In this document: positions 5,467-29,402 of the stretch, piece after piece
How the letters are laid out: each line of letters begins with the position of its first letter
How positions within the stretch are numbered: position 1 is the stretch's first letter
NCBI GenBank assembly: GCA_964202905.1
Contig: CAXNJO010000017.1
Span: 1 to 63,620, forward strand
DNA length: 63,620 bases
Reading direction: 5' to 3'
Source of the DNA: Polyangiales bacterium
GTDB lineage: Bacteria; Myxococcota_A; Polyangia; Polyangiales; JADJQN01
Made by a program: the position numbers and the translations under genes
The notes under the pieces: generated by a model
Databases searched by the model: none
What the model was told of the DNA's origin: nothing
Seen by the model: only the letters and a program-made list of their open reading frames with translations

Positions 5467-5758
5467 GCGTATAGCTCATCCGATCGCCCCTTCGGTCGTG
5501 CTCCGTGACGCTGCATCTTCTCCGAACGCTACGCGAGCGCGCCGCGGAGCACAATCTCGACGTCAATGCTGCTCTGCCGGAGGCGCGTCGACGTGCCTCG
5601 AGCGCCCACTTTCAGCGCATGTTCGCGCAGCGAACGCACGTCTCCCTGACCGCGCTGTGCGCAGCCGCTCGGCTCACCGTGCTCTCCGCTCAACCGAACA
5701 CGAGCCGCAGCTGCCCGTGCGCGGACGCTCGCGGCTCGGCGTCGGGCGGCGCTCTCGG
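5467..5758 (-). mobile_element. IS91/ISCR oriIS end copy (292 bp)
   Basis: Matches 25652-25943 apart from a C/T change near the tip. Confidence 0.9.
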
Positions 5759-5925
5759 CGGCGCTCTTGTCGCGCGGGGAGACGACGGTGAGATCGATGG
5801 CGATGCCGGGATTCGCGTAGCGGAGCTGGCGCTCGAAGGTCGCGAGGGTCGCGTGGAGGCAGCGGATCGCCTCGTTTTTCACCCCCGCGTTCATGTCGAT
5901 GAGGCAGACGCGGACGGGCGGGGCT
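5759..5925 (-). pseudogene. N-terminal fragment of a probable type 1 glutamine amidotransferase-like gene
   Basis: VRVCLIDMNAGVKNEAIRCLHA... breaks abruptly at the oriIS copy; family call from recalled motif only. Confidence 0.4.
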
Positions 5926-5987
5926 GCGGGACGTTACTGGATCTGCGCGACGATCGCGAGAGAGACGCGCGGCGATCCGATCCGCCC

Positions 5988-7418
5988 TCAGACCATCAGC
6001 TCGCTGAGCGGCCCTTCAGCGATGCGGTTGGGCCCCTCGCGACCGAACGCGTTGAGTTCGATGCCGGCCAGATGGCCGAGTGTGTTCCACAGATTGGAGA
6101 GCTGGCGGTGGGTGCGCGCGATCCGGACGCCCGGGTAAACCACGGACCGCCCCCCTGTCCGCAGGCCGAGCGCGCGCCCCCCGAGGAGCAGCACCGGGAA
6201 CTCGAGCGCCTGGCTGTGGTGCTGCTCGCCATTGTCGCCGATGTACACGATGACGGTGTGGTCGAGCATGGTTCCTCCGTCTTCGGGGACGGCGAGGAGC
6301 CGACGCGCCAGAGACGCGACGAGATCGACCTGACGGCGCGTGATGTCATGGATCTGCGCGGCGAGCGTCGCGTCGGCGCCCGAGCCGTGGTGGAGGACAT
6401 GACGCGACTCCCCGGCGACGTCGGCGGGATACGAGACATTGAAGTCGCCACCAGTCCCGCATCCCACGACGCAGACGTGGGTGAGCCCACCGATCAGTGC
6501 AGCCGCGGCCACGTCGAGCTGCGCCCCAAGGCGTTCGAACACCGACTCGGATTCGTAACGGGTGTCGGACGACGGGTCGGTCGGTCGGGCCGCAGCGAGC
6601 GTGTCGCGCAAGGCGATGATGCGGCTCTGACGCGCGGACAGAACCTCGAGAGACGCGAGATACGCTTCCAGTTTCGCGCGCTCCACGCTCGTCCCCGAAA
6701 AGGCGGCGAGCGCCGCGCGCACGTCCGCCGCCGCGAAGTCGAGGAGCTCGTTGCGGCGCGTGAACGCGCGCTGGCCAGCAGCCGAGGCCACGGAGCCGAA
6801 CAGCAGATCGTGCGCGGCCTTCGGCTGCAGGATGAGCGGCGCGCTCGCACCACGGTCGAACGCGCAAGTCCCGAAATCGAGCGCCTTGCTCACGTCCGCC
6901 GCCACGCCGAGCCGGACCGCATCGAATGGCGCCTCTGCCCGGACCTGCGCGAGCGACGCGAGGAGAGCGTCGATCGTCGTCCCACCGGCCACGCCTGCGA
7001 TCGTCCGAGTCGAGCTGAGCACCCCGTGCTCGGCGGAGTGTCCGCCGTTGACGATGCGGGAACTCAGCCCGAGCACGACGGCTGCGTGCGGAAGAAGCGA
7101 CGGGACATCCGCGCTCCCGGCGAGCGCGCCGAGCGCCGACGCAGACGCGAGGTCTCCCGGGATATCGAGCGTGGTTTCGTGGCCGGCCTTGTCCGGCCAC
7201 CAGCGGTCTTCGCCAATCGGCGCCGTCGCACGCGCGTCGATCGCGGCACGCGCCGAGTTGGAGAGCATCGTCACGGGCTCGAAGCCGTTCCCCTCGACGA
7301 CGAAGACGAAGCGGCGAGCGGGTGCCCCGCCAGCACGCGCGATCCGCGTGAGCAGCGGCGCGAGGACGAGGCCGCCCGCCCCGAGCCCGAACATCTTCAC
7401 GATCTCCCGGCGGTTCAT
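5988..7418 (-). CDS. DUF1552 family protein, Tat-exported
   Basis: MNRREIVK Tat signal, RRFVFVVEGNG, HVLHH, GGTMLDHTVIVY, PVLLLGG; coupled to upstream gene by ATGA overlap. Confidence 0.85.
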   Translation of the reverse strand: MNRREIVKMFGLGAGGLVLAPLLTRIARAGGAPARRFVFVVEGNGFEPVTMLSNSARAAIDARATAPIGEDRWWPDKAGHETTLDIPGDLASASALGALAGSADVPSLLPHAAVVLGLSSRIVNGGHSAEHGVLSSTRTIAGVAGGTTIDALLASLAQVRAEAPFDAVRLGVAADVSKALDFGTCAFDRGASAPLILQPKAAHDLLFGSVASAAGQRAFTRRNELLDFAAADVRAALAAFSGTSVERAKLEAYLASLEVLSARQSRIIALRDTLAAARPTDPSSDTRYESESVFERLGAQLDVAAAALIGGLTHVCVVGCGTGGDFNVSYPADVAGESRHVLHHGSGADATLAAQIHDITRRQVDLVASLARRLLAVPEDGGTMLDHTVIVYIGDNGEQHHSQALEFPVLLLGGRALGLRTGGRSVVYPGVRIARTHRQLSNLWNTLGHLAGIELNAFGREGPNRIAEGPLSELMV

Positions 7419-9892
7419 CGGTCCTGCTCCTCGAGCGTCCGCATTTGGAACGTGTCGCTCGCGACGAGGGTTCGGATCATCGTGAAGAACGAGCCATCGG
7501 CGTCGAGCGACGACTCCATCGCCGAGAGGGTGCACGCATCGCCCTCGGTCTCGTTGCGCCCCGTGAAGTAACGGAACGCGTGGCGGATGAAGCAACGACG
7601 CGCGACGCGTGAGGCCGCGATGCGCTGCGAGAGGTCGATCGCGTCACGGACCTCCCCGATAAGCGCGACGTCGGGCGCGAGGGTGATGGTGCTCGCGCCG
7701 CTCGGATCGAGCGGCATCGCCCCCGGTCCATGGTCGTAGGCACGTACGAAACCCGCATGGTTGTAGATCTCGAACGGAAATCCGAGCGGATTCATCAGTT
7801 CGTGGCAGCCCATGCAGGTCGGCGCGAAGGGATTGGCATCCGGGTCCTCGACGCTCGTGACGAGCCGCTGGCGTGCCGACCGCGACGGGTCGCTCGGGAT
7901 CAGGGTCGCCGGAACGGACACGAGATCGAGGCCCGGCACCGTCTCGCAGAAGAGCTGCTCGCGAATCCAGCGCCCGCGACGCACGGCGCTCGCGTCGTCT
8001 TCGAAATTGCCACCGTGCGCTGCGAGCCAGGCCGGGTGCGTGAGCACGCCCATGCGCTCGCTCGCCGGGACCTCGACCCATCGCCCCTCGGGCGTTGCGG
8101 GAATGTCCTCACGTCCGTACACACGGGCGAGCGACACCATCGAACCTGCGATGGAATTTCCGCAAACATTGATCGACGTGCAGTTCGTGAAAGGCGCTGC
8201 GGTGCAATCGGCGGCTTCCGTAGCCTCCGTGCAGGGGACCCCGTTGGTCGACGAGAGATTCGAAGGGAGACGCCACATCCGCGACGTGAAAAGCGCCGCG
8301 AAGACGTCTTCCCCGCGCTCGTGACTCTCGACCACGATGCGCGCGATCGTGTCGTCGAGCTGGTCGACCAGCGTGGTCTCCTTGCCGTAGAAACCGCTCT
8401 GAAGATTCGCGAAACCGCCCGTCGTCCGGTCGAATCTCGAGCCGTCACGATCCGGTCCTCCGTACCGCCCCGTGCCGCCGGGTGTGTCCTTGAATGCGCT
8501 GTTGGCGCCGGCGTAGTCGAGCCACTCGCGGAAGAAGGCGCTGAAATTCTCGGCGATCCAGAACTCTCCGCGCGCCGCAATCCGGCGTGTGTCCGCTTCG
8601 TCGAAGAGATCCTGCCGCGTCGGATCTTCGCCTCCCTGATAAGCCTCGAAGATACGACGGAGCGTGGCCTCGTCGTAGATCGCGCCGTCGTCCGCGGCGG
8701 CGCGGATCGCGCTCATCCGACCAAGCAGCGCGTCGGCATCCGGGTGCGGCGACGCGAGCGCAAGCGACACAGGCGTACCCGTCGGATGCGAACTGAACAC
8801 GTGACCGACAGCGAGGGCCATCTCGTCCGGAGTCAGCCGACGACGTCCAGCGGCGTCGCCCGCGACGGGCTCGCCGAGCTCGCTGCGGAAGAGCGACCCC
8901 GCCATGAGGTACGCCGCCTGCCCGACATGGTTGAGTGTCGCCTTGCGCCGCGTGATGTCGCCCGCCTCTTCGCCGAGCGTTCGCACGAGCCGTGCGCGCA
9001 GCCGGCCCGTCTCGTCGTCGCTCGGCGCCCGGAACAACGTGCCTCGGCGTAGCAGGGTGTCGAGATAGCGATCGATGCAGGCATCGGCCGGGGCGGGGTC
9101 CTCGTGAATGCAACGCAAATCGCGGTTGTTGTAGATGCCGACCGTCCGTCCACCGCCCACGAACTCGCCTCGGTCGGACTGCGGGTCATTGGTCGACCAG
9201 ATTGCTGGCGCTTCCGGGAGGACGAGAAGCAGCAGTTCGAGGGTGGTCGGATCGACGGTCACGCCCCTCGCATAGGTCGAATAGGGCAGCACCCGCGGAG
9301 TCTCGAGGGGATTGTCGCGAGAGTTGGAGTCCCGGGAAATTTCGACGCTCACGGGTTTGACGACGGCGTGGGTCCATTCGCGTCGCTCGACGCGACGGAT
9401 GCGCGCCGCTGACGCGTCGACCGTCGGCGTCGCGCACTCGAACAAAGCCTCCGGATCGAGATGGTTCGGATCGTAGAGATCCGGCAGAAAATCGGGGACA
9501 TCGCAGCGCGTGCTCGCGCCCGCCGCGATCCACGCCCGCACCTGCTCGACCTCTGGAATCGGCTCCGCCTGACCGAGAGGCATGAGCGGACCGGTGCTTC
9601 CGTCGGTCATCCGCTGAAAGAGGCGACTTCCCTCGGGATCGCCCGGGACGACATAGTCATCGAGCCCGGCGGCCTCGACCGCGTCGCGCGTGAGGACGAG
9701 CTCCGTGCGGGGATTGTGCGGCAGATGGCAGCCGCCGAGCGCGCAGCGACGCTCGAAAACCGCGATCACCTCGCAGGCCTCGGCACCCCTCGCCGCATCC
9801 GTACCTGCGTCGGCCGGCGCATCGTCGTCTCCACAAGCTCCCCAGAGCAGGGCTCCAAAGAGCACCACCATCCGCATCGACGTGGTTTGCAT
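7415..9892 (-). CDS. DUF1592/DUF1588-family lipoprotein with cytochrome c-type motifs
   Basis: LWGAC lipobox, CALGGCH...VVPGDPEGSRL (planctomycete cytochrome c-like), RMGVLTHPAWL, RRGRWIREQLFC, CMGCHELMNPLGFPFE. Confidence 0.85.
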   Translation of the reverse strand: MQTTSMRMVVLFGALLWGACGDDDAPADAGTDAARGAEACEVIAVFERRCALGGCHLPHNPRTELVLTRDAVEAAGLDDYVVPGDPEGSRLFQRMTDGSTGPLMPLGQAEPIPEVEQVRAWIAAGASTRCDVPDFLPDLYDPNHLDPEALFECATPTVDASAARIRRVERREWTHAVVKPVSVEISRDSNSRDNPLETPRVLPYSTYARGVTVDPTTLELLLLVLPEAPAIWSTNDPQSDRGEFVGGGRTVGIYNNRDLRCIHEDPAPADACIDRYLDTLLRRGTLFRAPSDDETGRLRARLVRTLGEEAGDITRRKATLNHVGQAAYLMAGSLFRSELGEPVAGDAAGRRRLTPDEMALAVGHVFSSHPTGTPVSLALASPHPDADALLGRMSAIRAAADDGAIYDEATLRRIFEAYQGGEDPTRQDLFDEADTRRIAARGEFWIAENFSAFFREWLDYAGANSAFKDTPGGTGRYGGPDRDGSRFDRTTGGFANLQSGFYGKETTLVDQLDDTIARIVVESHERGEDVFAALFTSRMWRLPSNLSSTNGVPCTEATEAADCTAAPFTNCTSINVCGNSIAGSMVSLARVYGREDIPATPEGRWVEVPASERMGVLTHPAWLAAHGGNFEDDASAVRRGRWIREQLFCETVPGLDLVSVPATLIPSDPSRSARQRLVTSVEDPDANPFAPTCMGCHELMNPLGFPFEIYNHAGFVRAYDHGPGAMPLDPSGASTITLAPDVALIGEVRDAIDLSQRIAASRVARRCFIRHAFRYFTGRNETEGDACTLSAMESSLDADGSFFTMIRTLVASDTFQMRTLEEQDR

Positions 9893-9904
9893 GAGCCCGC
9901 TCTG

Positions 9905-9920
9905 GCGTATAGCCCATCCG
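9905..9920 (-). mobile_element. Minimal oriIS tip (16 bp)
   Basis: gcgtatagcccatccg identical to the extreme end of the copies at 10731 and 25652. Confidence 0.75.
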
Positions 9921-9992
9921 GACCGCAAGCGCTTCACCGTGACCGACGACGGCATGGTGGTGATCCCCAAGCGGGCGCGGCTCAAGGGCTGA
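9921..9992 (+). pseudogene. glgC: 3'-terminal fragment of glucose-1-phosphate adenylyltransferase
   Basis: DRKRFTVTDDGMVVIPKRARLKG* resembles the GlgC C-terminus (DxxRFxVxxxGxVVIPK). Confidence 0.6.
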
Positions 9993-10073: not shown

Positions 10074-10691
10074 CTACTCCTTCGCTGTGGACTCGGTCGC
10101 ACCCCCGATGGCTCGCTCATCGTCGGTGATCGCCGCGGCGTCCGAGACGCGCAAGCCCGTCGCGGTGGCGCGCGCACCACGGGCGGCATCGATCTGCGCG
10201 GCGAGCGCGGCGGGGTCGTTGGCGGGGAACAGCAGGCGCTTCGTGGCGCCCGCGTCGGTCCAGGAGAGCAGCACCGAGCCGCGGTCGGCGAAGAGGACCC
10301 AACCCGCACCCGTAGCGACGGTGGGTCCGCCGGTAACGGACTTCGCCTCGCAGGCGGTGATCGCGGCGACGCGGATGCGGTGGTCGGAGAGGCCCCACCG
10401 GACGGTCACCTCGTCGCGGGTGACGGCGGTGCGCACCACCATGCGGGTGAGCAGCGTGTACACCGCCCCAAGGAAGGCTCCGAAGGGGAGGATGGCGGCG
10501 AGGCGTGGCGCGGCCGGGTCGGCCCCCGAGGCGACCGCGATCGCGGCGAGCAGCGCGATGAGCCCACCCGGGATCATCAGCGCCGCCGCCGTGCGGGCGA
10601 CGTGCTTGTCGCGGTGCTGCGCGCGGGCGTCGTCGACCATGGCGCGCTCCTGCGCGTCGGTGGCGGTGGTGCGGGTGCCGGTGTCGCTCAT
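10074..10691 (-). CDS. Membrane protein with two TM helices and a bacterial PH-like domain
   Basis: Two hydrophobic segments then VTRDEVTVRWG...I..AAI and LLFPANDPAALAAQI. Confidence 0.6.
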   Translation of the reverse strand: MSDTGTRTTATDAQERAMVDDARAQHRDKHVARTAAALMIPGGLIALLAAIAVASGADPAAPRLAAILPFGAFLGAVYTLLTRMVVRTAVTRDEVTVRWGLSDHRIRVAAITACEAKSVTGGPTVATGAGWVLFADRGSVLLSWTDAGATKRLLFPANDPAALAAQIDAARGARATATGLRVSDAAAITDDERAIGGATESTAKE

Positions 10692-10730: not shown

Positions 10731-11075
10731 GCGTATAGCCCATCCGATCGCCCCTTCGGTCGTGCTCCGTGACGCTGCATCTTCTCCGAACGCTACGCGA
10801 GCGCGCCGCGGAGCACAATCTCGACGTCAATGCTGCTCTGCCGGAGGCGCGTCGACGTGCCTCGAGCGCCCACTTTCAGCGCATGTTCGCGCAGCGAACG
10901 CACGTCTCCCTGACCGCGCTGTGCGCAGCCGCTCGGCTCACCGTGCTCTCCGCTCAACCGAACACGAGCCGCAGCTGCCCGTGCGCGGACGCTCGCGGCT
11001 CGGCGTCGGGCGGCGCTCTCGGATAGCCGCGCTCGCTGAGCACGCGCGCTATCTCGCCGGGCTTCTTCGCGATCT
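10731..11075 (-). mobile_element. IS91/ISCR oriIS end plus transposase tail (345 bp), truncated by IS3
   Basis: Matches 25652-25996; outside flank reads CTTG on the minus strand, a known IS91 target tetramer. Confidence 0.9.
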
Positions 11076-11120
11076 TGAGCTTGCCCCGCTTCGGTGGACA
11101 TCTCGGAAGAGGTGGGCACG

Positions 11121-11456
11121 ATGGCGAAGATGGCAGAGAGCGGGTCAGGGAAGTCGGGCAAGGCACGTCGCGCGCGGCGTAGTTTCAGCGACGAGTTCAA
11201 GGCCGGGGCGGTCGCCCTGGTGCTCAAGGAAGGCGGCACCGTCACGCAGGTCGCGAAGAATCTCGACCTCACGGACTCGGCGCTGCGAGGCTGGGTGGAG
11301 CGGACGCGAGCCGACGCCGGCAAGGGCAAGCCCGGCGTGCTGACGAGCGACGAGCGCGAGGAACTCACGCGCCTCCGACGCGAGAACCGTGTTCTCCGCG
11401 AGGAGCGCGAGATCTTAAAAAAAGCCGCGGCCTTCTTCGCCAAGGAACGGACGTGA
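11121..11456 (+). CDS. IS3 transposase OrfA
   Basis: HTH RRSFSDEFKAGAV...EREILKKAAAFFAKE; A7G slippery motif near 11417-11425. Confidence 0.9.
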   Translation: MAKMAESGSGKSGKARRARRSFSDEFKAGAVALVLKEGGTVTQVAKNLDLTDSALRGWVERTRADAGKGKPGVLTSDEREELTRLRRENRVLREEREILKKAAAFFAKERT

Positions 11457-12322
11457 GGTTCGCGTTCGTCGAGGCGGAGAAGGAGACCCACGCGGTCACC
11501 ATGCTGTGCCGCGCCGTGAACGTCTCGCGAGCCGGCTACTACGCGTGGCAGGCGCGCACGGAGTCGGAGCGCGCCAAGCGCGACGCGCAGCTGCGGGTGC
11601 TGGTGCAGGCGGCGCACGTGAAAAGCCGACGCACCTACGGGAGCCCTCGAGTCTTCGCGGAGCTGGTCGAGGGCGGCGAGCGCGTCAGCCGCAAGCGCGT
11701 CGCTCGGCTCATGCGCGAGCAAGGCCTCGTGGCACGGCAGCGCAAGCGCTACCGCGTCCACGTCGTCCCGGAGAACGAGCAGCCCGTGGCCGCGAACGTT
11801 CTCGCCCGCGAGTTCGAGGCCGACGCGCCGAACCAGCGGTGGGTCGGGGACACGACCGAGCTGACGACACCGGGCGGCAGACTCTTCCTCGCTGCGCTGC
11901 TCGACCTTCATTCGCGCCTCGTCGTCGGTTGGGCGACGAGCGCGGTGAACGACCGTCACCTCGTGATGAGGGCGCTTCGTGCGGCGCTGCAGCATCGACG
12001 GCCGCACGGCGGCCTGCTGCACCACAGCGACCAGGGAAGCCCGTACGCCAGCGGCGATTATCAACGACTGCTGCGCCACAACGGGCTGACGTGCAGCATG
12101 AGTCGCCGTGGGAACTGCTACGACAACGCGGTGATGGAGAGCTTCTTCTCCACCGTGAAGTTCGAGCTCGGCGAACGCTTCGACTCGCACGCGGACGCGA
12201 AGACGAAGTTGTTCGATTACATCGAGGTCTTCTACAACCAGGAGCGCAGGCACTCGGCGCTGGGCAACATGAGCCCCGCGCGCTTCGAGCGCATGCCCGC
12301 GAAGCAGGCAGCAGCGAGCTAG
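11453..12322 (+). CDS. IS3 transposase OrfB (DDE/rve)
   Basis: YGSPRV, WVGDTT, HHSDQGSPY, NCYDNAVMESFF. Confidence 0.95.
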   Translation: MRFAFVEAEKETHAVTMLCRAVNVSRAGYYAWQARTESERAKRDAQLRVLVQAAHVKSRRTYGSPRVFAELVEGGERVSRKRVARLMREQGLVARQRKRYRVHVVPENEQPVAANVLAREFEADAPNQRWVGDTTELTTPGGRLFLAALLDLHSRLVVGWATSAVNDRHLVMRALRAALQHRRPHGGLLHHSDQGSPYASGDYQRLLRHNGLTCSMSRRGNCYDNAVMESFFSTVKFELGERFDSHADAKTKLFDYIEVFYNQERRHSALGNMSPARFERMPAKQAAAS

Positions 12323-12376
12323 GCAACCTGTCTACTGAACCGGGGCAAGCTCAAACCAGATTGGGAGGACGCCAGG

Positions 12377-12979
12377 ATGAGCAAGCGAACGTTTTATCGA
12401 CCGAGGACTTCGGATCGCGTCTCAGCGGCAACGGCGTTTGCCCTCTTGCTGGCGGGGTGCACCGGAAGCAACGCGCCTGCGGTCGATCGCGCCACTGGCG
12501 CACTTGGGGAGGCGCCGCTTCCCAGCGACGATGTACCGCCTGGTACCGTGGACTCTGCCCGCGTAGATCGCGCCGACGACGCACTGCTGCTTGTACTTGA
12601 GGGGACCGACGACCCTGAGGCGCGACTCGCCGCTCGATTCTCGCAGTTCGAGACGGCGTCGGCCGAAGTTCAGCGCGATGCCGACTTGGACCTCAGTTCG
12701 GTGACAGCGACCGGGGCTGCGCTGCGTGCTCGCCTCCTCGATTCGCCCGAAGCGCGCCGAGACGGCGAGGAAGCGGATCGCGCGCGTGCGCTCCGTGGCG
12801 ACGTTTTCGTGCCCACGGCAGCGGATCGTGCGTCGTTCGAGATGGTGCTAGCCGGCATAGATGAGCGAGCTGCGGAGCGAGAGCGCGCCCCCGCGCCGCG
12901 AGAGCTTCGAACTCCCGAAGGCGTTTCGACCACTACTGTCATGCCCACCGCTGAGGAGCTTCGTCATGGCGCGCGCTAA
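12377..12979 (+). CDS. Hypothetical lipoprotein, first gene of the protease operon
   Basis: GGAGG RBS, LLAGC lipobox, overlaps next gene start. Confidence 0.65.
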   Translation: MSKRTFYRPRTSDRVSAATAFALLLAGCTGSNAPAVDRATGALGEAPLPSDDVPPGTVDSARVDRADDALLLVLEGTDDPEARLAARFSQFETASAEVQRDADLDLSSVTATGAALRARLLDSPEARRDGEEADRARALRGDVFVPTAADRASFEMVLAGIDERAAERERAPAPRELRTPEGVSTTTVMPTAEELRHGAR

Positions 12980-13885
12980 ATGCACTCTCGCGGTACGTCT
13001 CGGAGCCTTTGTTGCGCTTGGGTTGGCGCTGCTCACGTCGACTGAAGTCGCCGAAGCGCAGGTGTTCGTTCAGCCTGACCCCATCGGCACACCCATAGGA
13101 CTCTTCCTCACGCCGGTCCTCACCAACGGCGCGTGCTACGAGATCGAGACCTCCAACTTGTCGGCGAACGCCGACCCCGTCATGAGCATTCGCGACGGTC
13201 AGAACGATCTCGCGAATACACTTGCTGGCGCCGACTCTTGCTCGGGCAACGTGCGTCCGGCGTGTACGCGGTTCTGCCCCGTACAATCACGCGCGTACTA
13301 CGTTTGGGTTCGGTCGTACAATGTCGTGACTCGCGGAACCGCGGACGTGCGCATCCAGCAGATGGCAGGGCCTACGGGCGGCACCCCTGGCGCCGGGATC
13401 TGCCCGCCGGGGTCCCCGGTGAGCTTCGGTTGCTGGACCAACATGGTGACCAATCTGAGCTTTGGCGGGATGATTCGAAACGAAGCCTTCCCAACGGGCC
13501 AGCTTCAGTTCGAGACGGGCGAAATGCCTGGCTCGCAGACGAGCACGGGCAATGTGAGCTCGCACATCATCGTTTTCGCGGGCGAGAACGACAACACCGC
13601 TCTGAACTGGAAGATCGCCTCCAGCGCGCACCCGCCACTGCTCGGCTCTGGCGCCCCGGCGTCTCATCGTAACGGCGTCCTCCGGACTGCGCAGTACAGT
13701 GGATTGCGACCTTCGCAAGTCCCGAGCGGGGCGACGTATGTGGCGATCGCCGGGCCCTTCGGAGGCAGTGGCCCGTATCGATTCATGCGCAACGACTTTG
13801 TTTTCGACACGGCCGAGCGCGCAGGTGTAGATGCTGACCTCGACAAGATCGGCGTGAACCTCCCCCCGTTCTGCGGACAGTTTGA

Positions 13886-14761
13886 CTATGCAGCCCGCCC
13901 TTGAATCTGACTCATCAATTCGAACTCGATAGGACTCATGTACCCGAGATGCGAGTGACGACGTCGCGTGTTGTAGAAGTTGTCGATGTAATCGCCGATC
14001 GCGACGGTCGCCGCGTCGTGCGACGTGTAGATGTGCTCGCCGACGAGCTCGGTCTTCAAGGTGCTGAAGAAGCTCTCGGCGACGGCGTTGTCCCAGCAGT
14101 CCCCCTTCCGGCTCATGCTCGCGATCATGGCGAAGCGCTCGAGCTCGGCGCGGTAGTCGGCGCTGGCGTAGGGGCTTCCGCGATCGGAGTGCTGCACGAG
14201 GCCCGCTGGTGGCCGCCTCGTCGTGATCGCGTCGCGGAGCGCGTCGAGCGCCAGGAAGCGGTCGTTCGTCGCGCTCGTCGCCCAGCCGACGACGCGGCGC
14301 GAGAACAAGTCGAGCATCACGGCGAGGAACAGCCAGCCGCTGCGCGTCCAGATGCACGTCACGTCGGTGACCCAGGTGTCGTTCTTCTCGTCGGTGACGA
14401 AGTTGCGATCGACGACGTTCGGCGCGATCGGGTCACCGTGCTTCGAGTCGGTCGTCGCGCGGAAGCGCTTCTTGGCCCGCGCCACGAGGCAGTCTTCGCG
14501 CATGATCTTCGCGACGGTCTTCTCGCTCACGATCACGCCGTCGGCCTGCAGCTCGGCGCGGACGCGAGGACTCCCATAGGTTCGTCGGCTCGCCTCGAAG
14601 GCCTCGCGCACCTTCGCGCGCAGCTCGGTGTTGCGGGCCTTCCGCTTCGACACGGGCAGCGCCTTCCATCTGTAGAAGCCGCTCGTCGAGACGCGGAGCA
14701 CGCAGCACATCACGGTCACGGGGTAGGCCACCGTCCACGCGAGGATGAACGCGTACTTCAC
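13886..14761 (-). CDS. IS3 transposase OrfB
   Basis: YGSPRV, WVTDVT, HSDRGSPY, DCWDNAVAESFF. Confidence 0.95.
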   Translation of the reverse strand: MKYAFILAWTVAYPVTVMCCVLRVSTSGFYRWKALPVSKRKARNTELRAKVREAFEASRRTYGSPRVRAELQADGVIVSEKTVAKIMREDCLVARAKKRFRATTDSKHGDPIAPNVVDRNFVTDEKNDTWVTDVTCIWTRSGWLFLAVMLDLFSRRVVGWATSATNDRFLALDALRDAITTRRPPAGLVQHSDRGSPYASADYRAELERFAMIASMSRKGDCWDNAVAESFFSTLKTELVGEHIYTSHDAATVAIGDYIDNFYNTRRRHSHLGYMSPIEFELMSQIQGRAA

Positions 14762-15072
14762 GCGTTCTCCTTGGCGAAGAAGGTGGCCGCCGCTTTTAGG
14801 ATTTCGCGTTCCATTCGGAGCTGCTTGTTCTCTCGCCGCAGCCGCGCCAGCTCGGCCCGCTCTTCGGTCATCAGCACCGTAGGGCTTCCGACGCCTGCGT
14901 CTGCCTCAGCTCGCCGCACCCACTCGCGCAGCGTCGTCTCCGTGAGGTCGAGGTCCTTCGCCACCTGCGTCGCGGACTTCCCGCTCACGACCAGCCGCAC
15001 CGCGTCTGCTCGAAACTCCGGCGTGAACGATCGCTTTGCTCGCCGGCCTGTCTTCAGCTTCTTCATGGACAC
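14758..15072 (-). CDS. IS3 transposase OrfA
   Basis: RSFTPEFRADAV...MEREILKAAATFFAKE. Confidence 0.9.
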   Translation of the reverse strand: MSMKKLKTGRRAKRSFTPEFRADAVRLVVSGKSATQVAKDLDLTETTLREWVRRAEADAGVGSPTVLMTEERAELARLRRENKQLRMEREILKAAATFFAKENA

Positions 15073-15085
15073 TCCTCGCGCATCT

Positions 15086-15165
15086 TCGCGCTACCCGGGG
15101 TGTCCGCAAACCGGGGGGAAGCTCATCGCGCTACCCGGGGTGTCCGCAAACCGGGGGGAAGCTCA
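15086..15165. repeat. Exact 2 x 40-bp tandem duplication of an IS3 end
   Basis: tcgcgctacccggggtgtccgcaaaccggggggaagctca at 15086-15125 and 15126-15165. Confidence 0.95.
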
Positions 15166-16657: not shown

Positions 16658-16690
16658 CCGCGAAACGCCCTTTGTTGCAGGCGTGATCCT

Positions 16691-20384: not shown

Positions 20385-21830
20385 ATGCGCGCTGAGGCCG
20401 TAGTCGCGCTCGGATTTGCGCTCGCGCTGCTCGCTGCATGCGACGGCGCGGGCAACAAACCCGCGCGCGACCTCGGGGTCGACTCGGGGTCCTACCCACT
20501 CGTCCCGTTCGCGCCACGCCTGCTTTTTGAAGACCCGTCGGTGCGCTGCGAGGTGCCGCCGCCGCCAGCGATGCGGCCAGCAACGACGCCGCGTCCAACG
20601 CGCGGCGCCGTGCGATGGGTGTTCAATCCGTCTCGAGATCCTGCGACCCTCGCCGCTCTGGCCGGGGAGGGACGCAGCGGCTTAGGTCTCACAGGCGAAG
20701 CGCTCACGGGAATGGCTAGCGGCGGTTTTGTAACCACAACGGACCTGGGCCGGTACTACCTTGGTGTCAACGGAGACGGAGAGTTCGCACTCTTCGGCGG
20801 CGCCGGTGCCTCACGATACGGCGCCACGTGGCTCATGCCATCGACGTACATCAACCGGCCCCATCAAGACGTACGCCTCGATCTCTACGACGCTGTCGAT
20901 CGCAGCCTAACTCGGACCGCCGCCCTCACTTCGCTCCCGGGCGGTTATCCCGGAACCTCCGAGGGAGATATCGAGTTCGTTGGGCCGGCCGTGCTGCCCG
21001 ACGGCACTATCGCGTGGCTCCCTACGACTCGCACCCTTGCGGCATCGTGCCCAGACGGGCGGCTGCGCTGGGTGATGGAGTTCTACAACCCGGCGGCGGT
21101 CACTATCCCTGCGATCTTCGCGGCGGGCGACGGCAACATTATCCTCGCGCGAGGCTTTGTCGGCATTCATCGGATCGATCCCGGTGGGCGTGTGCTGGCC
21201 AGCCGCCCGCTTGCGGGCATCGACGGAGGGGCGATGGGGTTCTCGGACCGCTGCGGAGTCGCATTGCTCACACCGAACCCAGCAGCGCCCACGTCACTCG
21301 TCCTCAAGTACTTCTCCGGTACGGACTTCTCGACGGAGCGCGAGTTGCCCCCCGAGGCGATTCCAACGAACGATTGCGGCTGGTGGAGCAGCACACCGCC
21401 CCCGTCGACGGTGTGGTCTCGCTACCGGCCAGATGGCACGCTCGCCTTCGTAAACCCGGGCCGGAGCCCTTCGCTCACGAAGTTCGAACTCGCCGATGGC
21501 TCCTGGCTGATGGTTGACCGGGGTGGCAGTCGCGAGACCCCGCCGGGTATGAGCATTGTCTCGGACGACGGCACTCTAGTCTTCGACACGGCTTTCGATA
21601 CCAGGGTCGTTGGTGAAGACTTCAAGCTCGGAGCGTATTTGCTCACGCCAGACGGTGTGCTCTACGTCACCGCGACGTCCGGCTTCGAGGCGGTACAGCA
21701 GTTCGTCGCTATTGAAGTCGGGGTCGGCGAGGGGTCAACCTGGGCGCGCTGGTCGGGCGCCGCGCTACGCGGCGACGGCGGCAACTGGACGCGCGACAAC
21801 GCGACATGGCATCCGACGCCTGCTCTCTAG
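20385..21830 (+). CDS. Lipoprotein, probable beta-propeller (PQQ-like repeats)
   Basis: LAAC lipobox; repeated PAVLPDGTI, PDGRLRW, PDGTL, PDGVLYV; overlaps the protease stop. Confidence 0.7.
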   Translation: MRAEAVVALGFALALLAACDGAGNKPARDLGVDSGSYPLVPFAPRLLFEDPSVRCEVPPPPAMRPATTPRPTRGAVRWVFNPSRDPATLAALAGEGRSGLGLTGEALTGMASGGFVTTTDLGRYYLGVNGDGEFALFGGAGASRYGATWLMPSTYINRPHQDVRLDLYDAVDRSLTRTAALTSLPGGYPGTSEGDIEFVGPAVLPDGTIAWLPTTRTLAASCPDGRLRWVMEFYNPAAVTIPAIFAAGDGNIILARGFVGIHRIDPGGRVLASRPLAGIDGGAMGFSDRCGVALLTPNPAAPTSLVLKYFSGTDFSTERELPPEAIPTNDCGWWSSTPPPSTVWSRYRPDGTLAFVNPGRSPSLTKFELADGSWLMVDRGGSRETPPGMSIVSDDGTLVFDTAFDTRVVGEDFKLGAYLLTPDGVLYVTATSGFEAVQQFVAIEVGVGEGSTWARWSGAALRGDGGNWTRDNATWHPTPAL

Positions 21831-22051
21831 TGCTCGATCCCGCGCTATTCAAGCGCTGCTACGGTCGATGAACTTCGCAGCGGCGCGGAGAGCAATCGGC
21901 GAAGTGGACCGCCGTCGCGATACCGGCACCGAGGTGCTGATCGTGGAACCCGAAGCCGGCGACGGCGTGAGTGCTCTTGTGGTCGACGGTAGGGGGAGAG
22001 CGGAGCGCGTCCTGCGCTCGCAGCTCGAAGCGCTCGATCAGCCCGCCGGTC

Positions 22052-22420
22052 AGCCTTCAGGCACCACGACGTAGTCGGCGACGCGGTCAACGGCGCAGAT
22101 GACCTATCCATCGGTGCCGATCAGTTCACTGCGCCCGGTCTCGTGCATCACGCCACCGTCCGGCGTCTCGGACCAAACGCGCAGCGTCCACGCCGTGACC
22201 GTCGCACCAGCGTACGCACGCTCGCCGACGTTGGTGGGGTCTGGAGCGCCGAGCGATACGCAAGGGATCGACTCCCACGCTCGCGGCGGGACGCAGCTCA
22301 GCGTGTTCAGCTCGCTGCAGGCGTCGGGCGCGCTGAGCCTAAAGGTCGGGCCGCGCGTCTGGTCGAGCCAGTTGACGGCCTCCATCTGTGCTTCGTCGCA
22401 CGTCGTCGTGATGCCGTCGC
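22052..22420 (-). pseudogene. 3' remnant of a Cys-containing secreted protein truncated by IS3 copy 2
   Basis: Frame starts at the IS boundary, has an in-frame TAG at 22104 and continues VICAVDRVADYVVVPEG*. Confidence 0.5.
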
Positions 22421-22465
22421 TGAGCTTGCCCCGCTTCGGTGGACATCTCGGAAGAGGTGGGCACG

Positions 22466-22801
22466 ATGGCGAAGATGGCAGAGAGCGGGTCAGGGAAGTC
22501 GGGCAAGGCACGTCGCGCGCGGCGTAGTTTCAGCGACGAGTTCAAGGCCGGGGCGGTCGCCCTGGTGCTCAAGGAAGGCGGCACCGTCACGCAGGTCGCG
22601 AAGAATCTCGACCTCACGGACTCGGCGCTGCGAGGCTGGGTGGAGCGGACGCGAGCCGACGCCGTCAAGGGCAAGCCCGGCGTGCTGACGAGCGACGAGC
22701 GCGAGGAACTCACGCGCCTCCGACGCGAGAACCGTGTTCTCCGCGAGGAGCGCGAGATCTTAAAAAAAGCCGCGGCCTTCTTCGCCAAGGAACGGACGTG
22801 A
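22466..22801 (+). CDS. IS3 transposase OrfA
   Basis: Near-identical to 11121-11456. Confidence 0.9.
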   Translation: MAKMAESGSGKSGKARRARRSFSDEFKAGAVALVLKEGGTVTQVAKNLDLTDSALRGWVERTRADAVKGKPGVLTSDEREELTRLRRENRVLREEREILKKAAAFFAKERT

Positions 22802-23667
22802 GGTTCGCGTTCGTCGAGGCGGAGAAGGAGACCCACGCGGTCACCATGCTGTGCCGCGCCGTGAACGTCTCGCGAGCCGGCTACTACGCGTGGCAGGCGC
22901 GCCCGGAGTCGGAGCGCGCCAAGCGCGACGCGCAGCTGCGGGTGCTGGTGCAGGCGGCGCACGTGAAGAGCCGACGCACCTACGGGAGCCCTCGAGTGTT
23001 CGCGGAGCTGGTCGAGGGCGGCGAGCGCGTCAGCCGCAAGCGCGTCGCTCGGCTCATGCGCGAGCAAGGCCTCGTGGCACGGCAGCGCAAGCGCTACCGC
23101 GTCCACGTCGTCCCGGAGAACGAGCAGCCCGTGGCCGCGAACGTTCTCGCCCGCGAGTTCGAGGCCGACGCGCCGAACCAGCGGTGGGTCGGGGACACGA
23201 CCGAGCTGACGACACCGGGCGGCAGACTCTTCCTCGCTGCGCTGCTCGACCTTCATTCGCGCCTCGTCGTCGGTTGGGCGACGAGCGCGGTGAACGACCG
23301 TCACCTCGTGATGAGGGCGCTTCGTGCGGCGCTGCAGCATCGACGGCCGCACGGCGGCCTACTGCACCACAGCGACCAGGGAAGCCCGTACGCCAGCGGC
23401 GATTATCAACGACTGCTGCGCCACAACGGGCTGACGTGCAGCATAAATCACCGTGGGAACTGCTACGACAACGCGGTGATGGAGAGCTTCTTCTCCACCG
23501 TGAAGTTCGAGCTCGGCAAACGCTTCGACTCGCACGCGGACGCGAAGACGAAGTTGTTCGATTACATCGAGGTCTTCTACAACCAGGAGCGCAGGCACTC
23601 GGCGCTGGGCAACATGAGCCCCGCGCGCTTCGAGCGCATGTCCGCGAAGCAGGCAGCAGCGAGCTAG
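22798..23667 (+). CDS. IS3 transposase OrfB
   Basis: Near-identical to 11453-12322. Confidence 0.95.
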   Translation: MRFAFVEAEKETHAVTMLCRAVNVSRAGYYAWQARPESERAKRDAQLRVLVQAAHVKSRRTYGSPRVFAELVEGGERVSRKRVARLMREQGLVARQRKRYRVHVVPENEQPVAANVLAREFEADAPNQRWVGDTTELTTPGGRLFLAALLDLHSRLVVGWATSAVNDRHLVMRALRAALQHRRPHGGLLHHSDQGSPYASGDYQRLLRHNGLTCSINHRGNCYDNAVMESFFSTVKFELGKRFDSHADAKTKLFDYIEVFYNQERRHSALGNMSPARFERMSAKQAAAS

Positions 23668-23698
23668 GCAACCTGTCTACTGAACCGGGGCAAGCTCA

Positions 23699-24079
23699 GA
23701 CCTGCTCTACCTCGTCGAACGTCGGCGCACCGAGCGCGCGAAACGCGAGCGCGCCGATGGAATCACGCACCTAGACGCCATCGAGAAACAGCGAGTGCGC
23801 ATGCACGTTGAGGCGTAATGCGGAGTCGCTGCGCTGAATGAACGTCACTGCGCCAACATGCGCATCGTCGACGCTCGGCAGGCCGAGACGTGCCTTTGCC
23901 CGGTGTCGGAGCGAGCGAGAGACCGCGCCCGTGAACGCCGACATCTCCTCTGCGCGAAGCCCCCTGTCATAGCCGAGCAAGATGCGCAGTCGCCAAGGCA
24001 GCGAGCACACCCACTGTCGCGCTGGCACCTCGGGGAGCACGTCGTCGACGAGGTGCGCGGCCGTGTCTGACATGCGCCG
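23699..24079 (-). pseudogene. Internal fragment of a second copy of the IS91 transposase (HUH region), without the IS1380 insertion
   Basis: RQWVCSLPW...FIQRSDSALRLNVHAH; matches 26787-26929 joined to 28631-28867; premature TAG at 23771. Confidence 0.9.
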
Positions 24080-24146: not shown

Positions 24147-24653
24147 TCACTCCGCCGTCGCGCCCGCTGCGTCCGAGGACGCGTCCCACGAGCTGACCTC
24201 GATGAAGAGCTGCTGAGTCCCGCGCAAGTCAGCGCGGCGCACCAAGGTGCCCCGGAGCGTCGTCAGCTCCGCGAACTGTTCTTCGCACGCTGCACCGAGC
24301 GGGCACTCTTCGGTCGGTTGCAGCCCGACTCCGCCGCGCGTGTTGCAGGCGAAGTTCGGGTCGGGCACGCCGCTCGATAGCATCGATCGGGGCGTGACGA
24401 AGATGGTCGGCTGACCCGCACACGCAAACGCCGGGGCGTAAGTCACCACGTTGCAGCAAGTCCCTGACAGACAATACGCGATCGTCCCCGTGAGGAACGT
24501 CGTCGCACCGGGCGTCGGCGGTCCATGCACGATGATCTCACTCCCGACGAGCGACTCTGCCTCTTCACAAAGCTCTTTGGCTGTGAGCTCGGATGGCCCA
24601 CATCCGACAACCGCCAAGACTACGAATATCGCGAATGCACGAGCGGGTGGTAT
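24147..24653 (-). CDS. Cys-rich lipoprotein; apparent start is ATA behind a GAGGA RBS
   Basis: In-frame IPPARAFAIFVVLAVVGC lipobox upstream of the annotated ORF. Confidence 0.55.
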   Translation of the reverse strand: MPPARAFAIFVVLAVVGCGPSELTAKELCEEAESLVGSEIIVHGPPTPGATTFLTGTIAYCLSGTCCNVVTYAPAFACAGQPTIFVTPRSMLSSGVPDPNFACNTRGGVGLQPTEECPLGAACEEQFAELTTLRGTLVRRADLRGTQQLFIEVSSWDASSDAAGATAE

Positions 24654-24753
24654 GGTGTTCGTCCTCTGTGCTCGATTCTACACAGGGGCATCATGTGGCC
24701 GCCAGGCAGCGCAACGAAGCGCGACGCTTCGCCGCGGCGAGCGCCGCCCGGCG

Positions 24754-25593
24754 TCAGCGTCCGAACTGCAAGTGGTCGATCTCGAGCCCACTGCCAGTGT
24801 TGATGATTCGGATCGCGGCGATGCCATCCGGGGCGCACACACCGAAGAAACGATCCTCGGCGACCTGACCCGTAGTCGCCGCGTCGGGGAACACACCGGC
24901 CTCGCTGCTCGGCCCGATCGTCGCGATCACCGAGCCATCCGCAGCGAGCGCTTCGAAGGTCACGGTGCCGCCGCCGCCGTCGGTCCACACGAGCCCAGCG
25001 ATCGTCGGCAGTGCACCGTCGAGCGCCGACGGTGCGAAGTCGAAGCGCATCGCACCGCTCGTGAAGAGCGTGTGGCACGTCATGTCCGTGCGGACGCACA
25101 TGCCGTCGACCGTCCCGTCGTCTCCGTCGACCGAGTCCTCCAAGCCGATGAAGCCACCTCCCGTGCCCACCAGCGTCACCGCCGCGGAGCCGGTCGTGCA
25201 CTCCGTCAGGCCGCTACACGCAGTCACGCCGTCCGTCGTCGCCACTGCATCCTCGAAGTCTCTCAGCACGAAACGCGTAGGCGCCAGCGCGTCGAACGGG
25301 CTGTCAGCGCGAGACAAATACGGCGTCGGACCGAACGTCTTGACGACCGTACACAACGGGACCGTCCCCGCGTCCGAGCCCGCGTCAGAGCCTGCGTCGG
25401 AGCCCGCATCGGTCGTGGTGCCTCCATCCATACCCATGTCTGCCTCCGTCCCCGCATCGGCTGGAGGAAGCCCCGCGTCGACGTCCATGCCTCCGGAGTC
25501 GCGACCCGCGTCGATGACGACAATAGTACTGTCTCCACAGCCCTGAGTGAGGAAAGCGGCGAGAACGAGAAGTCCGATGCGGTAGGTAACCAT
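24754..25593 (-). CDS. Lipoprotein with DAG low-complexity linker and beta-sandwich-like domain
   Basis: LTQGC lipobox, DAGS repeats, C-terminal EDRFFGV...GIAAIRI...LEIDHLQFG. Confidence 0.75.
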   Translation of the reverse strand: MVTYRIGLLVLAAFLTQGCGDSTIVVIDAGRDSGGMDVDAGLPPADAGTEADMGMDGGTTTDAGSDAGSDAGSDAGTVPLCTVVKTFGPTPYLSRADSPFDALAPTRFVLRDFEDAVATTDGVTACSGLTECTTGSAAVTLVGTGGGFIGLEDSVDGDDGTVDGMCVRTDMTCHTLFTSGAMRFDFAPSALDGALPTIAGLVWTDGGGGTVTFEALAADGSVIATIGPSSEAGVFPDAATTGQVAEDRFFGVCAPDGIAAIRIINTGSGLEIDHLQFGR

Positions 25594-26929
25594 TGCGGCG
25601 GCAAAGACTACGTTAACCACCGCTGGATTGCAAGATGGTCGAACGAGACCAGCGTATAGCCCATCCGATCGCCCCTTCGGTCGTGCTCCGTGACGCTGCA
25701 TCTTCTCCGAACGCTACGCGAGCGCGCCGCGGAGCACAATCTCGACGTCAATGCTGCTCTGCCGGAGGCGCGTCGACGTGCCTCGAGCGCCCACTTTCAG
25801 CGCATGTTCGCGCAGCGAACGCACGTCTCCCTGACCGCGCTGTGCGCAGCCGCTCGGCTCACCGTGCTCTCCGCTCAACCGAACACGAGCCGCAGCTGCC
25901 CGTGCGCGGACGCTCGCGGCTCGGCGTCGGGCGGCGCTCTCGGATAGCCGCGCTCGCTGAGCACGCGCGCTATCTCGCCGGGCTTCTTCGCGATCTCGAC
26001 GATGCGCAGCCGGCCGCCGCACTTCTCGCACTTCAAGATATCGACCGCGAACACCCGCTGCAGGAGCCAGCTCCACGGATGTCGCGACGGCTCGGCCGTC
26101 TTCTTCTTCGTGGCGCTCTTCGCTGACATCGTCGGCTCGTCCGTCTCATCGAACAGCGAGAGCTGCTTTGGCGGCGCGGCCGGCTTCTTCGGCACGACCT
26201 CGGCACGCAGCGACGAGTGCCCGGCGAGCACGCCGAGGTAGCGCATCAAATGAAAGCGCGGAGGCGGTACCAGCGCGCCAAAGTGCTCGTCGCTTCGCTT
26301 CTGCGCGCTATGGCCGCGCGATGCAGTCCGCGGGCGAGAGCACGACGGCGTGCGTCCCGTCCCTCCACGCCTTCTTGAAGCGATAGACGACCTGTCCCAG
26401 GGTGCTCGTCGCTACGCTCCTGCGCGCCATGTTCGCGCAGCGACAGCCGATCGAGCGCCAGAGGCGGCCGCGCCATGTAGCGCAACACGTGCTCGAGGCG
26501 CTGCCGATCGCGGCCGTCTATCGCCACCTCCGCGTGCACGTTGACGCCGCCGAACGCCGCGAGCGCGCGCGCCCCTGAACGCACGGCGCGCACAGGCTGC
26601 ACGAGCTTCAGCGTCTTTTGACCGGCATTGTCGCCGAGCAGCTGTAGGTCCGCCGCGGACGCCGCGTAACACGAGGCGAGCACAGGCTGAGCGTGCGTGA
26701 GCTCCGCCGGCTCATCGTCGAGTCCGTCGAGCGTACGGCCGTGCGCCAGCAGGACCTTCACGATGCGCGCGTGCGTCCATTGCGCGACCTGCTCTACCTC
26801 TTCGAACGTCGGCGCACCGAGCGCGCGAAACGCGAGCGCGCCGATGGAATCACGCACATAGACGCCATCGAGAAACAGCGAGTGCGCATGCACGTTGAGG
26901 CGTAATGCGGAGTCGCTGCGCTGAATGAA

Positions 26930-28625
26930 CCTCGATTTCGCGCTTGTCGCCCTTCGAGGTATCGTGAGCCGGTCTGCGACATGCTGAGTCGTCGCATCGA
27001 TGCATGAGAGTGTCCAAATGGCATGTATCGAGCACACTTCCCCCTTTCCCCCACGGTCCGTGGCAGGCTCTGCAACGCAGCGGTGGAGGACGTCACTCAC
27101 GCCGACCGCCGATCGCGTAGAGCGCTGTGCCGGGCATGACGAGAATGGATGTCCGTCGGCCTGAGCGCGCGAGAATGCCAGCGACGCAGAGAAAGGCGCG
27201 GCGTACCCAGTCCGCACGCCACACGACGACCTGCGGCGCGACCGCGCGCACGAAGCGACGAAGAAGGTTGAAGGCCAGCATCTTGAGCAGCAGCGTCGCG
27301 TGATTCGCGTTGAAGTGCCAACTCGGAGTCTCGGCGATTCCCCACTGGTTCTTCCACTCGGCGATCATCGTCTCGATTCCTGCACGACCGTCGTAGCGGG
27401 CGGCGACCGCCTCTGGCGCCTCGTCGGAGTTCGTGACGTACATTCGCACGGCCCACTCTTCGCCTTCCCAGAGCGTGAGCTGCTTGCCACAGCGGTCTTC
27501 GTTCGTGCGCACGGCGACGACCCGTGGCTTGATGCCCGCGGCATGCCACGAGCCCCGCGTGAAGGGCACCTCCGCTACCTGCGTGACCGGCTTGCCGTCC
27601 GCGTCCCACTCGGTCGTGCACCACGTGATGGTTTCGCGAGCGACCCGGCAGACGAGGTCGTCGGTGGCGCGAGCCTTGACGACGTAGACCGCGCCTGCCT
27701 CCGCGATCGCGGCCAGAATCTGCGCGCAGTCCGCCGCACTGTCGATTCGCACGAAGAGCTTCTGACGGCGCGTGAGCGTGGCCTTCACGCGCTCGACGAT
27801 CTGCTTCACGGCGGGTGCGTCGTCGGCGCCGAATGTGGTGTCACCGGGCCGGAGAATCGCGGCGACGCACGTGTCGACCTCCGCGATGCGGGCGACGATC
27901 GGGTGGTAGCTCTCGCGACCGTGTGCCCTCGGGTTGTAGCCGACAGCTGCGCCCTCGCGGCTCCCGTAAACGACCTCGACAGTCGAGTCGATGTCGAGAT
28001 GCACCTCTCGATGCGACTCAAGCGCATGGCCAGTGACACCATGCGTGAACATCAGCGCGTCGAGCGCACGCAGTGCGTCGACATCGAAACGCGCGAGGTC
28101 GCGATAGACGGTGTCGATGCTCGGTATGTAGCCGCCGTTGAGCAGGACGAAGAGCGGGTCCGCCGACAACGTTTCGATGTCGAACACGCGCGTTGCCCCG
28201 ACGGCCTGCGCGTCGATGAGCAAGCGCAGCTGTCCGGCCATCGGATAGACGACCCGCGGACCGTCCTTGAGCCGGTTCGCGATGTGCGCGAGATCCCGGC
28301 CGAGCCCGAGTTCGTCGACGAAGCCCGCGAACGTCGCGAGCCCAGCCATGTTGGTCAGCTTCGCAGACGTCGCTCTCAGGCCCAGCCTGCGAGCCTCCCG
28401 CCGCTTCACCTGTCGGCTCTGGGCTTGCAGCGCGTGCCCTGCACCTCGCTGTCCGCCCATCGCATCGCGCCTCACCTTGCAGGTGCCCAAAAGCTTCGCT
28501 GTGCTCGTCATCATGCGCGCGACAACGCCCGAGGCGATCGACGGATTCCCTTGCAGAACAACGTTTCTCACGATTCTTTCTCAGCTCGCACGGCAAATGG
28601 TAGCCGCGACGGAGCGAAAGCTAGG
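26930..28625 (-). mobile_element. IS1380-family element (1696 bp)
   Basis: CC...GG ends, IR CCTCGATTTCGCGC / CCTAGCTTTCGCTC, 5-bp TSD ATGAA; empty site visible at 23835-23845. Confidence 0.9.
27093..28571 (-). CDS. IS1380-family DDE transposase
   Basis: LDIDSTVEVVYGSREGAAVGYNP...YHP, LRPG, VRIDSA, YDGRAGIETMIAEWK. Confidence 0.9.
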   Translation of the reverse strand: MRNVVLQGNPSIASGVVARMMTSTAKLLGTCKVRRDAMGGQRGAGHALQAQSRQVKRREARRLGLRATSAKLTNMAGLATFAGFVDELGLGRDLAHIANRLKDGPRVVYPMAGQLRLLIDAQAVGATRVFDIETLSADPLFVLLNGGYIPSIDTVYRDLARFDVDALRALDALMFTHGVTGHALESHREVHLDIDSTVEVVYGSREGAAVGYNPRAHGRESYHPIVARIAEVDTCVAAILRPGDTTFGADDAPAVKQIVERVKATLTRRQKLFVRIDSAADCAQILAAIAEAGAVYVVKARATDDLVCRVARETITWCTTEWDADGKPVTQVAEVPFTRGSWHAAGIKPRVVAVRTNEDRCGKQLTLWEGEEWAVRMYVTNSDEAPEAVAARYDGRAGIETMIAEWKNQWGIAETPSWHFNANHATLLLKMLAFNLLRRFVRAVAPQVVVWRADWVRRAFLCVAGILARSGRRTSILVMPGTALYAIGGRRE

Positions 28626-29402
28626 ATGAACGTCACTGCGCCAACATGCGCATCGTCGACGCTCGGCAGGCCGAGACGTGCCTTTGCTCGGTGTCGGAGA
28701 GAGCGCGACACTGCGCCCGTGAACGCCGAAATCACCTCTGCGCAAAGCCTCCTGTCGTAGCCGAGCAAGATGCGCAGTCGCCATGGGAGCGAGCACACCC
28801 ATTGTCGCGCTGGCACCTCCGGGAGCACGTCGTCGACGAGGTGCGCGGCCGCGTCTGACATGCGCCGCGCGACGCACGACGGACAAAAGCCGCGCTTCTT
28901 GCACGAGAACGCGACGACCAGCTCTTGCCCGCAATCACAACACCGCAAGTGCACGAGGCCATGCTCGAGCAGCCCGCACTCGAGATATGCCTCGACCTCG
29001 CGGACCACGAACGTCGGCAGCCCGCCCGCCTCCTCCGCGCGCTCGAGGAATGCTGGCCAGTGCGCGCGCACCACGCGGTGCAACACAGTGTCCTCCGGAC
29101 GCCGCCGCGCATAGCCGTCCGCGCGAGGTGCGTGAGCAAGAGCTGAACAAACAGCGGCAACGGCGGACACCGCCGCTCATCGGCGCACCACCTGGCCCAG
29201 TGCTCAGCGCGCTCGGCTGCGATGGGGACGGCAGACGCGAGCCGGGCTCCCTCGATCGCCGCATCCTGAGGCGCGGCCCCGCGCCCGGCCTCGTTCGTGG
29301 GCGGGCTTCAGGGCAACCCCTTCTGGCAGACCCGCGCAGACGTGTGCGCGCGCTGGAACGCCGACAGCGTGGATCGCGCGGCAAACGCGTGGACCGCAGG
29401 CG

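Follow-up and report, generated by a model that had tools for sequence, protein, structure and literature searches.

How a single bacterial contig comes to hold four ends of one transposable element, all facing the same way and each set beside different genes, is the question raised by a 63,620-nucleotide stretch of DNA from a Polyangiales bacterium (hereafter the window, which is the whole of contig C17 in a genome, G000, of 5.68 Mb and 19 contigs; other labels beginning with C denote contigs of the same genome). The ends are those of an insertion sequence (IS) that belongs to the IS91/ISCR superfamily and to no named member of it. We consider it probable that they record repeated one-ended rolling-circle moves, in which each new stub would have acted as an outer origin and the array would have grown by stepwise accretion.

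The tip of the element, read on the + strand as GCGTATAGC(C/T)CATCCG, starts at 5467, 9905, 10731 and 25652, in one orientation and with an identical terminal base (chance alone would give 3e-6 exact copies in the window and 3e-4 in the genome). Inward from these positions the element continues for 292 bp, 16 bp, 345 bp (ending at an IS3 element) and its full length, respectively; the first stub measures 292 bp against the 25652 copy (copy A) and 303 bp against a variant on C2. This anatomy agrees with a preliminary description of the window, although the 15-letter tip pattern given there is one C short as typed and finds no match. A fifth piece of the element lies at 23699-24079, and a divergent ISCR-like stub at 1612-2091, a weak match, faces the opposite way to the four tips. 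All eight type-A tips share the terminal base and have unrelated outer flanks. Read on the - strand, the tip ends GGCTATACGC and aligns with the ISCR1 ori end CCTATACCC (as given in PMC13023784), in line with the earlier assignment of the tips as ISCR/IS91-type origin ends (oriIS). No target-site duplication was seen at the ends inspected (with no empty site for comparison), and the tip had no match in viral contigs. Gene starts point away from three of the tips, at 12, 39 and 58 nt, as had been proposed for all four; the 5467 tip lies instead within an FG-GAP frame that has an internal ATG at a distance of 15 nt. A general rule that tips sit just before gene starts was tried and is not claimed here (7 of 22 genome tips vs 18% of random intergenic positions).

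The window transposase (- strand, about 29170 to 25875) scores above cut-off for PF14319 and PF04986 in pieces. The copy at 25652, described earlier as a full element, is indeed full length, but an IS1380-type element and two small insertions disrupt it, and it is dead. These two insertions are similar, each of ~25 bp (26275-26305 and 26395-26425, core GCG(T/A)AGCGACGAGCAC), and interrupt the transposase reading frame; three C3 copies carry one of them at an identical position, and the rest of the genome has hardly any further occurrence of the motif. Among the long copies checked, an open frame (520 codons) is kept only by the copy shared by C6 and C15, and C5 is without one. Its product is 88% identical to the window transposase pieces and carries HxH, CxxC and RY motifs (from the C6 frame), which we take to be HUH (Y2)/zinc-finger motifs. 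Its best model is NCBIfam ISCR clade Ia (NF052416; 291 bits vs a cut-off of 925), the IS91 model NF033538 giving 82 bits (cut-off 125), and it is 38-40% identical to the best plasmid matches listed, one of them annotated ISVsa3. This copy has a variant end, GCGCGTAGGCCATCCG; the sole full-length open transposase frame found belongs to a variant whose ori differs from that of the four window tips, and the earlier suggestion that a transposase in trans could mobilise some 24 kb is not supported. Throughout, oriIS is precise and lies downstream of the transposase, and terminal inverted repeats are absent. Copies on C17, C5 and C2 diverge upstream after GCTCG(G), a point that is likely to be the terminus, terIS. 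No sigma-70 promoter was matched in the ori end (25560-26000), in a scan that may not fit this host.

The same layout recurs across the genome, which holds four trains from two transposase lineages. Besides that of the window, there are four stubs at C3:295-306 kb (cargo including DUF2141, a dehydrogenase, TetR, a TrkA_N fragment, a serine hydrolase and a transporter fragment), four tips at C2:667-683 kb and, at C13:102752-124271, a second ISCR-like lineage (34% identical) with six ends in one orientation, the shortest of 42 bp, and ragged tips. The C13 cargo includes PLD-like, SPASM, PIN and PH-domain genes, and the longest C13 copy forms a fusion with a serine recombinase element. Single copies are found on C5, on C6/C15 and at C2:489 kb. 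Neighbouring pairs are co-oriented in 14 of 15 cases in the genome (p 5e-4; pairs not fully independent) and in 18 of 22 in relatives (p 0.002; a count over all 59 matches, with kin not independent); the ends cluster and share orientation, as first described. In the relative G004, seven co-oriented copies occupy C15:231-255 kb and four lie on its C17, with the end GGCGCCAAGGACATCCG and several open transposase frames. Identical inner breakpoints with different flanks occur twice in G004 and twice on C13, and ori ends survive much more often than ter ends. A motif scan of metagenomes returned 74 loci, from which 52 chance motif matches were dropped; among the 22 tips kept (several redundant), in eight an additional piece on the same strand lies outside the tip (three of these loci overlap), and in one the pieces are opposed. 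At one metagenome locus (L095:1490-1570), tips of 20 and 60 bp are stacked directly before a long copy, which could represent abortive initiation or insertion at an ori. A scan of genome contigs with a single transposase protein gave four loci only, and the titled loci with the closest transposase were Sandaracinaceae and "delta proteobacterium" metagenome-assembled genomes.

The cargo is foreign to this genome. It has no close copy elsewhere in it, and in the five relatives searched (54-94% complete) it has no long match and is not core; the glgC-like fragment beside the 16-bp tip is unlike the genome's own glgC. Comparison with assembled contigs from 4 of 23 listed runs (source of contigs X1, X4, X5 and X6; joints with just 20-24 letters on one side were disregarded) places the DUF1552 block in contigs from three other studies at about 98-99% identity, running on into other DNA. 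In X4, X5 and X6 the match ends at 5758, and in X4 and X6 it has its other border at 9897; the X4 contig further holds a 283-bp stub with different flanks. Cargo genes are cut mid-gene and face both ways, and tips cut a short-chain fatty acid transporter (1-77 of 453), the FG-GAP gene and a TrkA_N gene. Because the remainder of these known genes does not lie across the stub, the stubs are not simple insertions. The cargo consists of pieces excised from other chromosomes, frequently within a gene. A theme of secreted proteins, suggested from the window, is absent in the C3 and C13 trains. The passengers had also been read as the genes beyond each tip; the direction of replication would put the cargo of an ori on its terIS side.

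A sequence signature of one-ended read-through is found on C2. Three mini-elements there have different outer flanks and carry nested cargo that extends 414, 863 and 863 bp past terIS and over its first 410 bp matches C2:663647-664128, 3 kb away, at 91-96%; both cargo ends read CCG. (At C2:682274 a mini-element tip lies inside the transposase of another copy, the remainder of which is missing; directly after the mini-element cargo, C2:668449-673679 matches C5:365518-370758 at 86%, which suggests a second imported copy.) Like terIS, inner and cargo ends in the genome fall after CG in seven of eight cases (p 0.004 against a null of 0.35, IS-made ends being left out), a rule that was noticed post hoc; the two C2 ends examined after it had been noticed both fit (p 0.13 alone). 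Such behaviour has precedent in experiment: IS91-family replication starts at oriIS and ends at terIS but often overruns, also acts in trans and can transport as much as 40 kb (PMC13181058), and early stops of IS801 leave ori stubs of 229, 360 and 679 nt in 26% of events, with flanks carried too (PMC3189936).

Read-through on C2, the CG ends, the recurrent breakpoints and the evidence against simple insertion together lead us to favour stepwise accretion. An ISCR-type HUH transposase would nick at the tip (at 5'-GCGTATAG on the + strand, a site that we infer) and copy the + strand towards terIS, with loose stopping: early, after internal CG sites, to leave ori stubs, or late, to carry flanking DNA. 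A stub that landed a few kb outside an existing tip would become the new outermost origin, and the next move would relocate the stub together with the intervening host DNA and the older copies; in this presumed order, repeated rounds would yield a co-oriented train of stubs and cut-out cargo, with only ori-keeping pieces able to move again, and such trains may be mobile still. The window train would have been remodelled later by host deletions and by IS3, IS66 and IS1380 insertions. HUH-mediated joining had been invoked for the train, and the transposase may well have made other junctions, but the 345-bp stub is truncated by IS3 and the inner end of the 5467 stub falls in a 12-bp microhomology (5758-5769). 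The tandem look of 5746-5769 was considered as a capture scar and dropped, because element variants on C2 and C5 show the same 12-bp unit.

Several observations weigh against stepwise accretion. The CG rule is post hoc and holds for only three of nine ends in metagenome relatives (p 0.67), and a bias for flanks starting with G is of marginal significance in the main family (8 of 14, p 0.053) and is not seen in the two others (5 of 11). The 5467 junction fits the 12-bp microhomology equally well. The 16-bp tip as it stands is unlikely to have fired as an origin, because it is shorter than the 82-bp ori of IS91 assays (PMC13181058). Hairpins at the ends are no better than in shuffled sequences (z between -0.8 and 0.7), the flanks have no target tetranucleotide in common, opposed neighbour pairs exist (4 of 22 in relatives, 1 of 15 in the genome), and no circle junction was seen in the assembled contigs.

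The same ends might instead mark an ordinary IS hotspot, which we judge unlikely: strand-biased full copies would have lost their 5' parts and flanking DNA to host deletions and other IS, so that the tips would be transposase-made, the inner ends not, and no stepwise capture need have occurred. The microhomology at 5758-5769 and the IS3-made ends at 11076 and 23702 are what such a history predicts, other IS or IS3-bounded DNA accounts for 60% of the span, and natural IS801 fragments have been concluded to stem mostly from reorganisation (PMC3189936); it sits badly, however, with the preferential retention of ori ends, with identical breakpoints repeated beside different flanks, and with the nested C2 cargo and CG ends. 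Misassembly of repeats in a metagenome-assembled genome, an explanation to which we give very little weight, would draw on the window being a whole contig with an end overlap, on C6 and C15 sharing the intact element at their ends, and on the fact that no listed contig spans the whole stretch. Yet C18 carries both stub 1 junctions again in the overlap (window 1-5936 with C18:5937-2), which has a single difference over 5,936 bp, and therefore probably adjoins the window; a contig of X1, which may be the source sample of the genome, bridges the 16-bp tip without a difference; and the copies differ in length and sequence, while the layout recurs in other genomes and metagenomes.

Integron-like shuffling appears quite unlikely. 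Here, replication from one ori to the next would release a single-stranded circle of stub plus cargo, which the transposase would insert where it nicks a resident ori, with short tips as the acceptor sites. This would account for the 16-bp tip and the stacked tips of L095, and a two-ori "sandwich" capture has been described for ISCR28 (10.1101/2025.01.22.634252, citing Yuan 2024); the ori has G as its first base, and a purine opens the flank after a stub in 13 of 14 cases. The purine bias fails in two other families (7 of 11), however, no cargo unit recurred in a second order or a second train, and the assembled contigs yielded no circle. That the trains form a working cassette system without an integrase, in which the HUH enzyme excises and re-inserts ori-to-ori single-stranded circles, is similarly improbable; were it true, the 16-20 bp tips would be attachment sites, the cargo would be reorderable, and the system would occur widely across Myxococcota and further environmental phyla, hidden by short-read assembly.

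Only part of the window is train. The preliminary description took the whole ~24 kb as such, whereas the span 5467-29215 (23,749 bp) comprises 2,916 bp of ISCR pieces, 6,513 bp of cargo and 14,320 bp of other IS and the IS3-bounded block, which contains another IS3 (13855-15125), an IS66 and genes without an assigned family. A cysteine-rich frame (13062-16004) is split by IS3, ends at IS66 and has no family match. Several named passengers needed adjustment: the FG-GAP fragment followed by a lipobox-like protein stands as described, and so does the DUF1552 gene, but its partner scores for DUF1588/DUF1585 and not DUF1592; the PH-like gene encodes a membrane protein with no Pfam PH match; and of two putative lipoproteins beyond 25652 only the first frame has a lipobox-like start. 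The ori-like motif at 1612-2091 was read by eye and is weak. The whole 29-kb region is bounded by a 920-bp direct repeat (98%), read here as a candidate homologous integration scar. An X4 contig matches the window up to 1205 and then continues for 737 letters; no empty site was obtained, G001 being not syntenic beyond the PPC gene, and an apparent ISCR match downstream of that gene in G001 vanished on inspection. No tRNA was found in the window, and no Rfam family reached gathering score in 1-31000.

Features of the window around the four tips (positions in the window)
Feature	Position	Strand	Remark
920-bp direct repeat, left copy (PPC-domain gene 3' part and downstream DNA)	287-1205	+	98% to 29403-30322
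ParA-like fragment	1208-1498	+	NF041546, E 1.8e-6, under cut-off
Divergent ISCR-like transposase tail, ori-like end	1612-2091	+	NF052416 positions 413-479, E 0.031
485-aa protein, lipobox-like motif, no family found	3603-5060	-	
3' fragment of FG-GAP repeat gene, cut by tip 1	5260-5466	-	PF01839, E 0.002
oriIS stub 1	5467-5769	-	5758-5769: microhomology shared with cargo
Glutamine-amidotransferase-like gene, cut 5' start (45 codons)	5758-5894	-	91% over 43 aa to C3:716960
DUF1552 gene	5988-7418	-	
DUF1588/DUF1585 protein, lipobox-like start	7415-9892	-	DUF1592 itself without score
16-bp oriIS tip	9905-9920	-	Bridged by X1 contig, no difference
Foreign glgC-like gene, last 23 codons	9921-9992	+	NF002023 positions 387-406 of 408, E 0.013
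Membrane protein, PH-like by look-alike only	10074-10691	-	bPH_4 cluster, score 0.93, family on 42% of members
oriIS stub 3, 345 bp, cut by IS3	10731-11075	-	
Block between two direct IS3-family copies (11076-12357, 22421-23702)	11076-23702		
Internal transposase fragment without ori	23699-24079	-	Inner end between CCG and G
Two open frames	24147-25593	-	First (24754-25593) with lipobox-like start, second without clear start
Full-length broken ISCR-type element	25652-29216	-	ori 25652, terIS-like end near 29216
IS1380-type element inside transposase	26930-28622	-	
920-bp direct repeat, right copy	29403-30322	+	

Comparison with known systems places the element closest to ISCR2/ISVsa3 and the ISCR group, with which it shares a zinc-finger plus Y2 HUH transposase of about 490-510 aa, an ori about 220 bp past the stop that ends CTATAC plus two bases, and variable genes beside the tip. 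It differs from them in sequence (the 38-40% identity and sub-cut-off score given above) and in having no resistance genes, no class 1 integron and 4-6 ori ends per locus. A 28-bp duplicated ISCR1 end occurs in In6. ISCR1 has variable genes at its ori and outward promoters (PMC6218425); no outward sigma-70 promoter was matched here, with the proviso on that scan stated above. Multi-copy arrangements are not new in themselves, and the locus is not a new platform: three ISCR19-like copies, only one with terIS, surround blaAFM-1 (PMC8075316), and these, like the ISCR28 sandwich, combine one terIS copy with 5'-shortened oriIS copies and captured genes between. Those cases involve two or three copies and one selected gene, whereas here there are several trains, stubs down to 16-42 bp and mixed cargo. 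IS801 derivatives arise as ori-anchored stubs by early termination and take flanks by late termination (PMC3189936), as is probable here, but stop at GAAC-like tetranucleotides and were trapped singly, whereas the present stubs are chained and lack a conserved tetranucleotide. IS91 and IS1294 have an HUH transposase and oriIS like the present element, and a terIS, one-ended transposition and action in trans (PMC13181058) that it probably shares; IS91-type repeats with an 11-kb circle are described at sdpA (PMC5737581); unlike IS91, the element falls below the IS91 model cut-off and its flanks vary, with no CTTG/GTTC target. Like integrons, the trains are rows of unrelated genes separated by a repeated site, but the cargo is cut mid-gene and faces either way, and no integrase accompanies the arrays: as first proposed, none of the four array regions holds a tyrosine integrase, the three PF00589 matches lying on C6, C8 and C11 (attC sites were not searched). 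No published account of multi-stub trains in environmental genomes was found, in a search that left subscription papers mostly outside.

What is new here is the repeated multi-stub train; the feature itself works like ISCR capture. The gene-capturing habit known from resistance elements is seen in this environmental bacterium as repeated ISCR-type capture in which resistance genes play no part. The movement of many resistance genes is attributed to ISCR elements, yet according to PMC6218425 (2018) and PMC9376610 (2022) ISCR transposition had not been shown, and the placement of genes beside the ori end is still a model. An open transposase frame, a natural 740-bp mini-element, mapped ends and graded stubs are all available in this genome, free of resistance genes, which makes termination and capture directly testable. 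The recurrence of stub-and-cargo trains suggests that they are a routine way for environmental bacteria to assemble islands.

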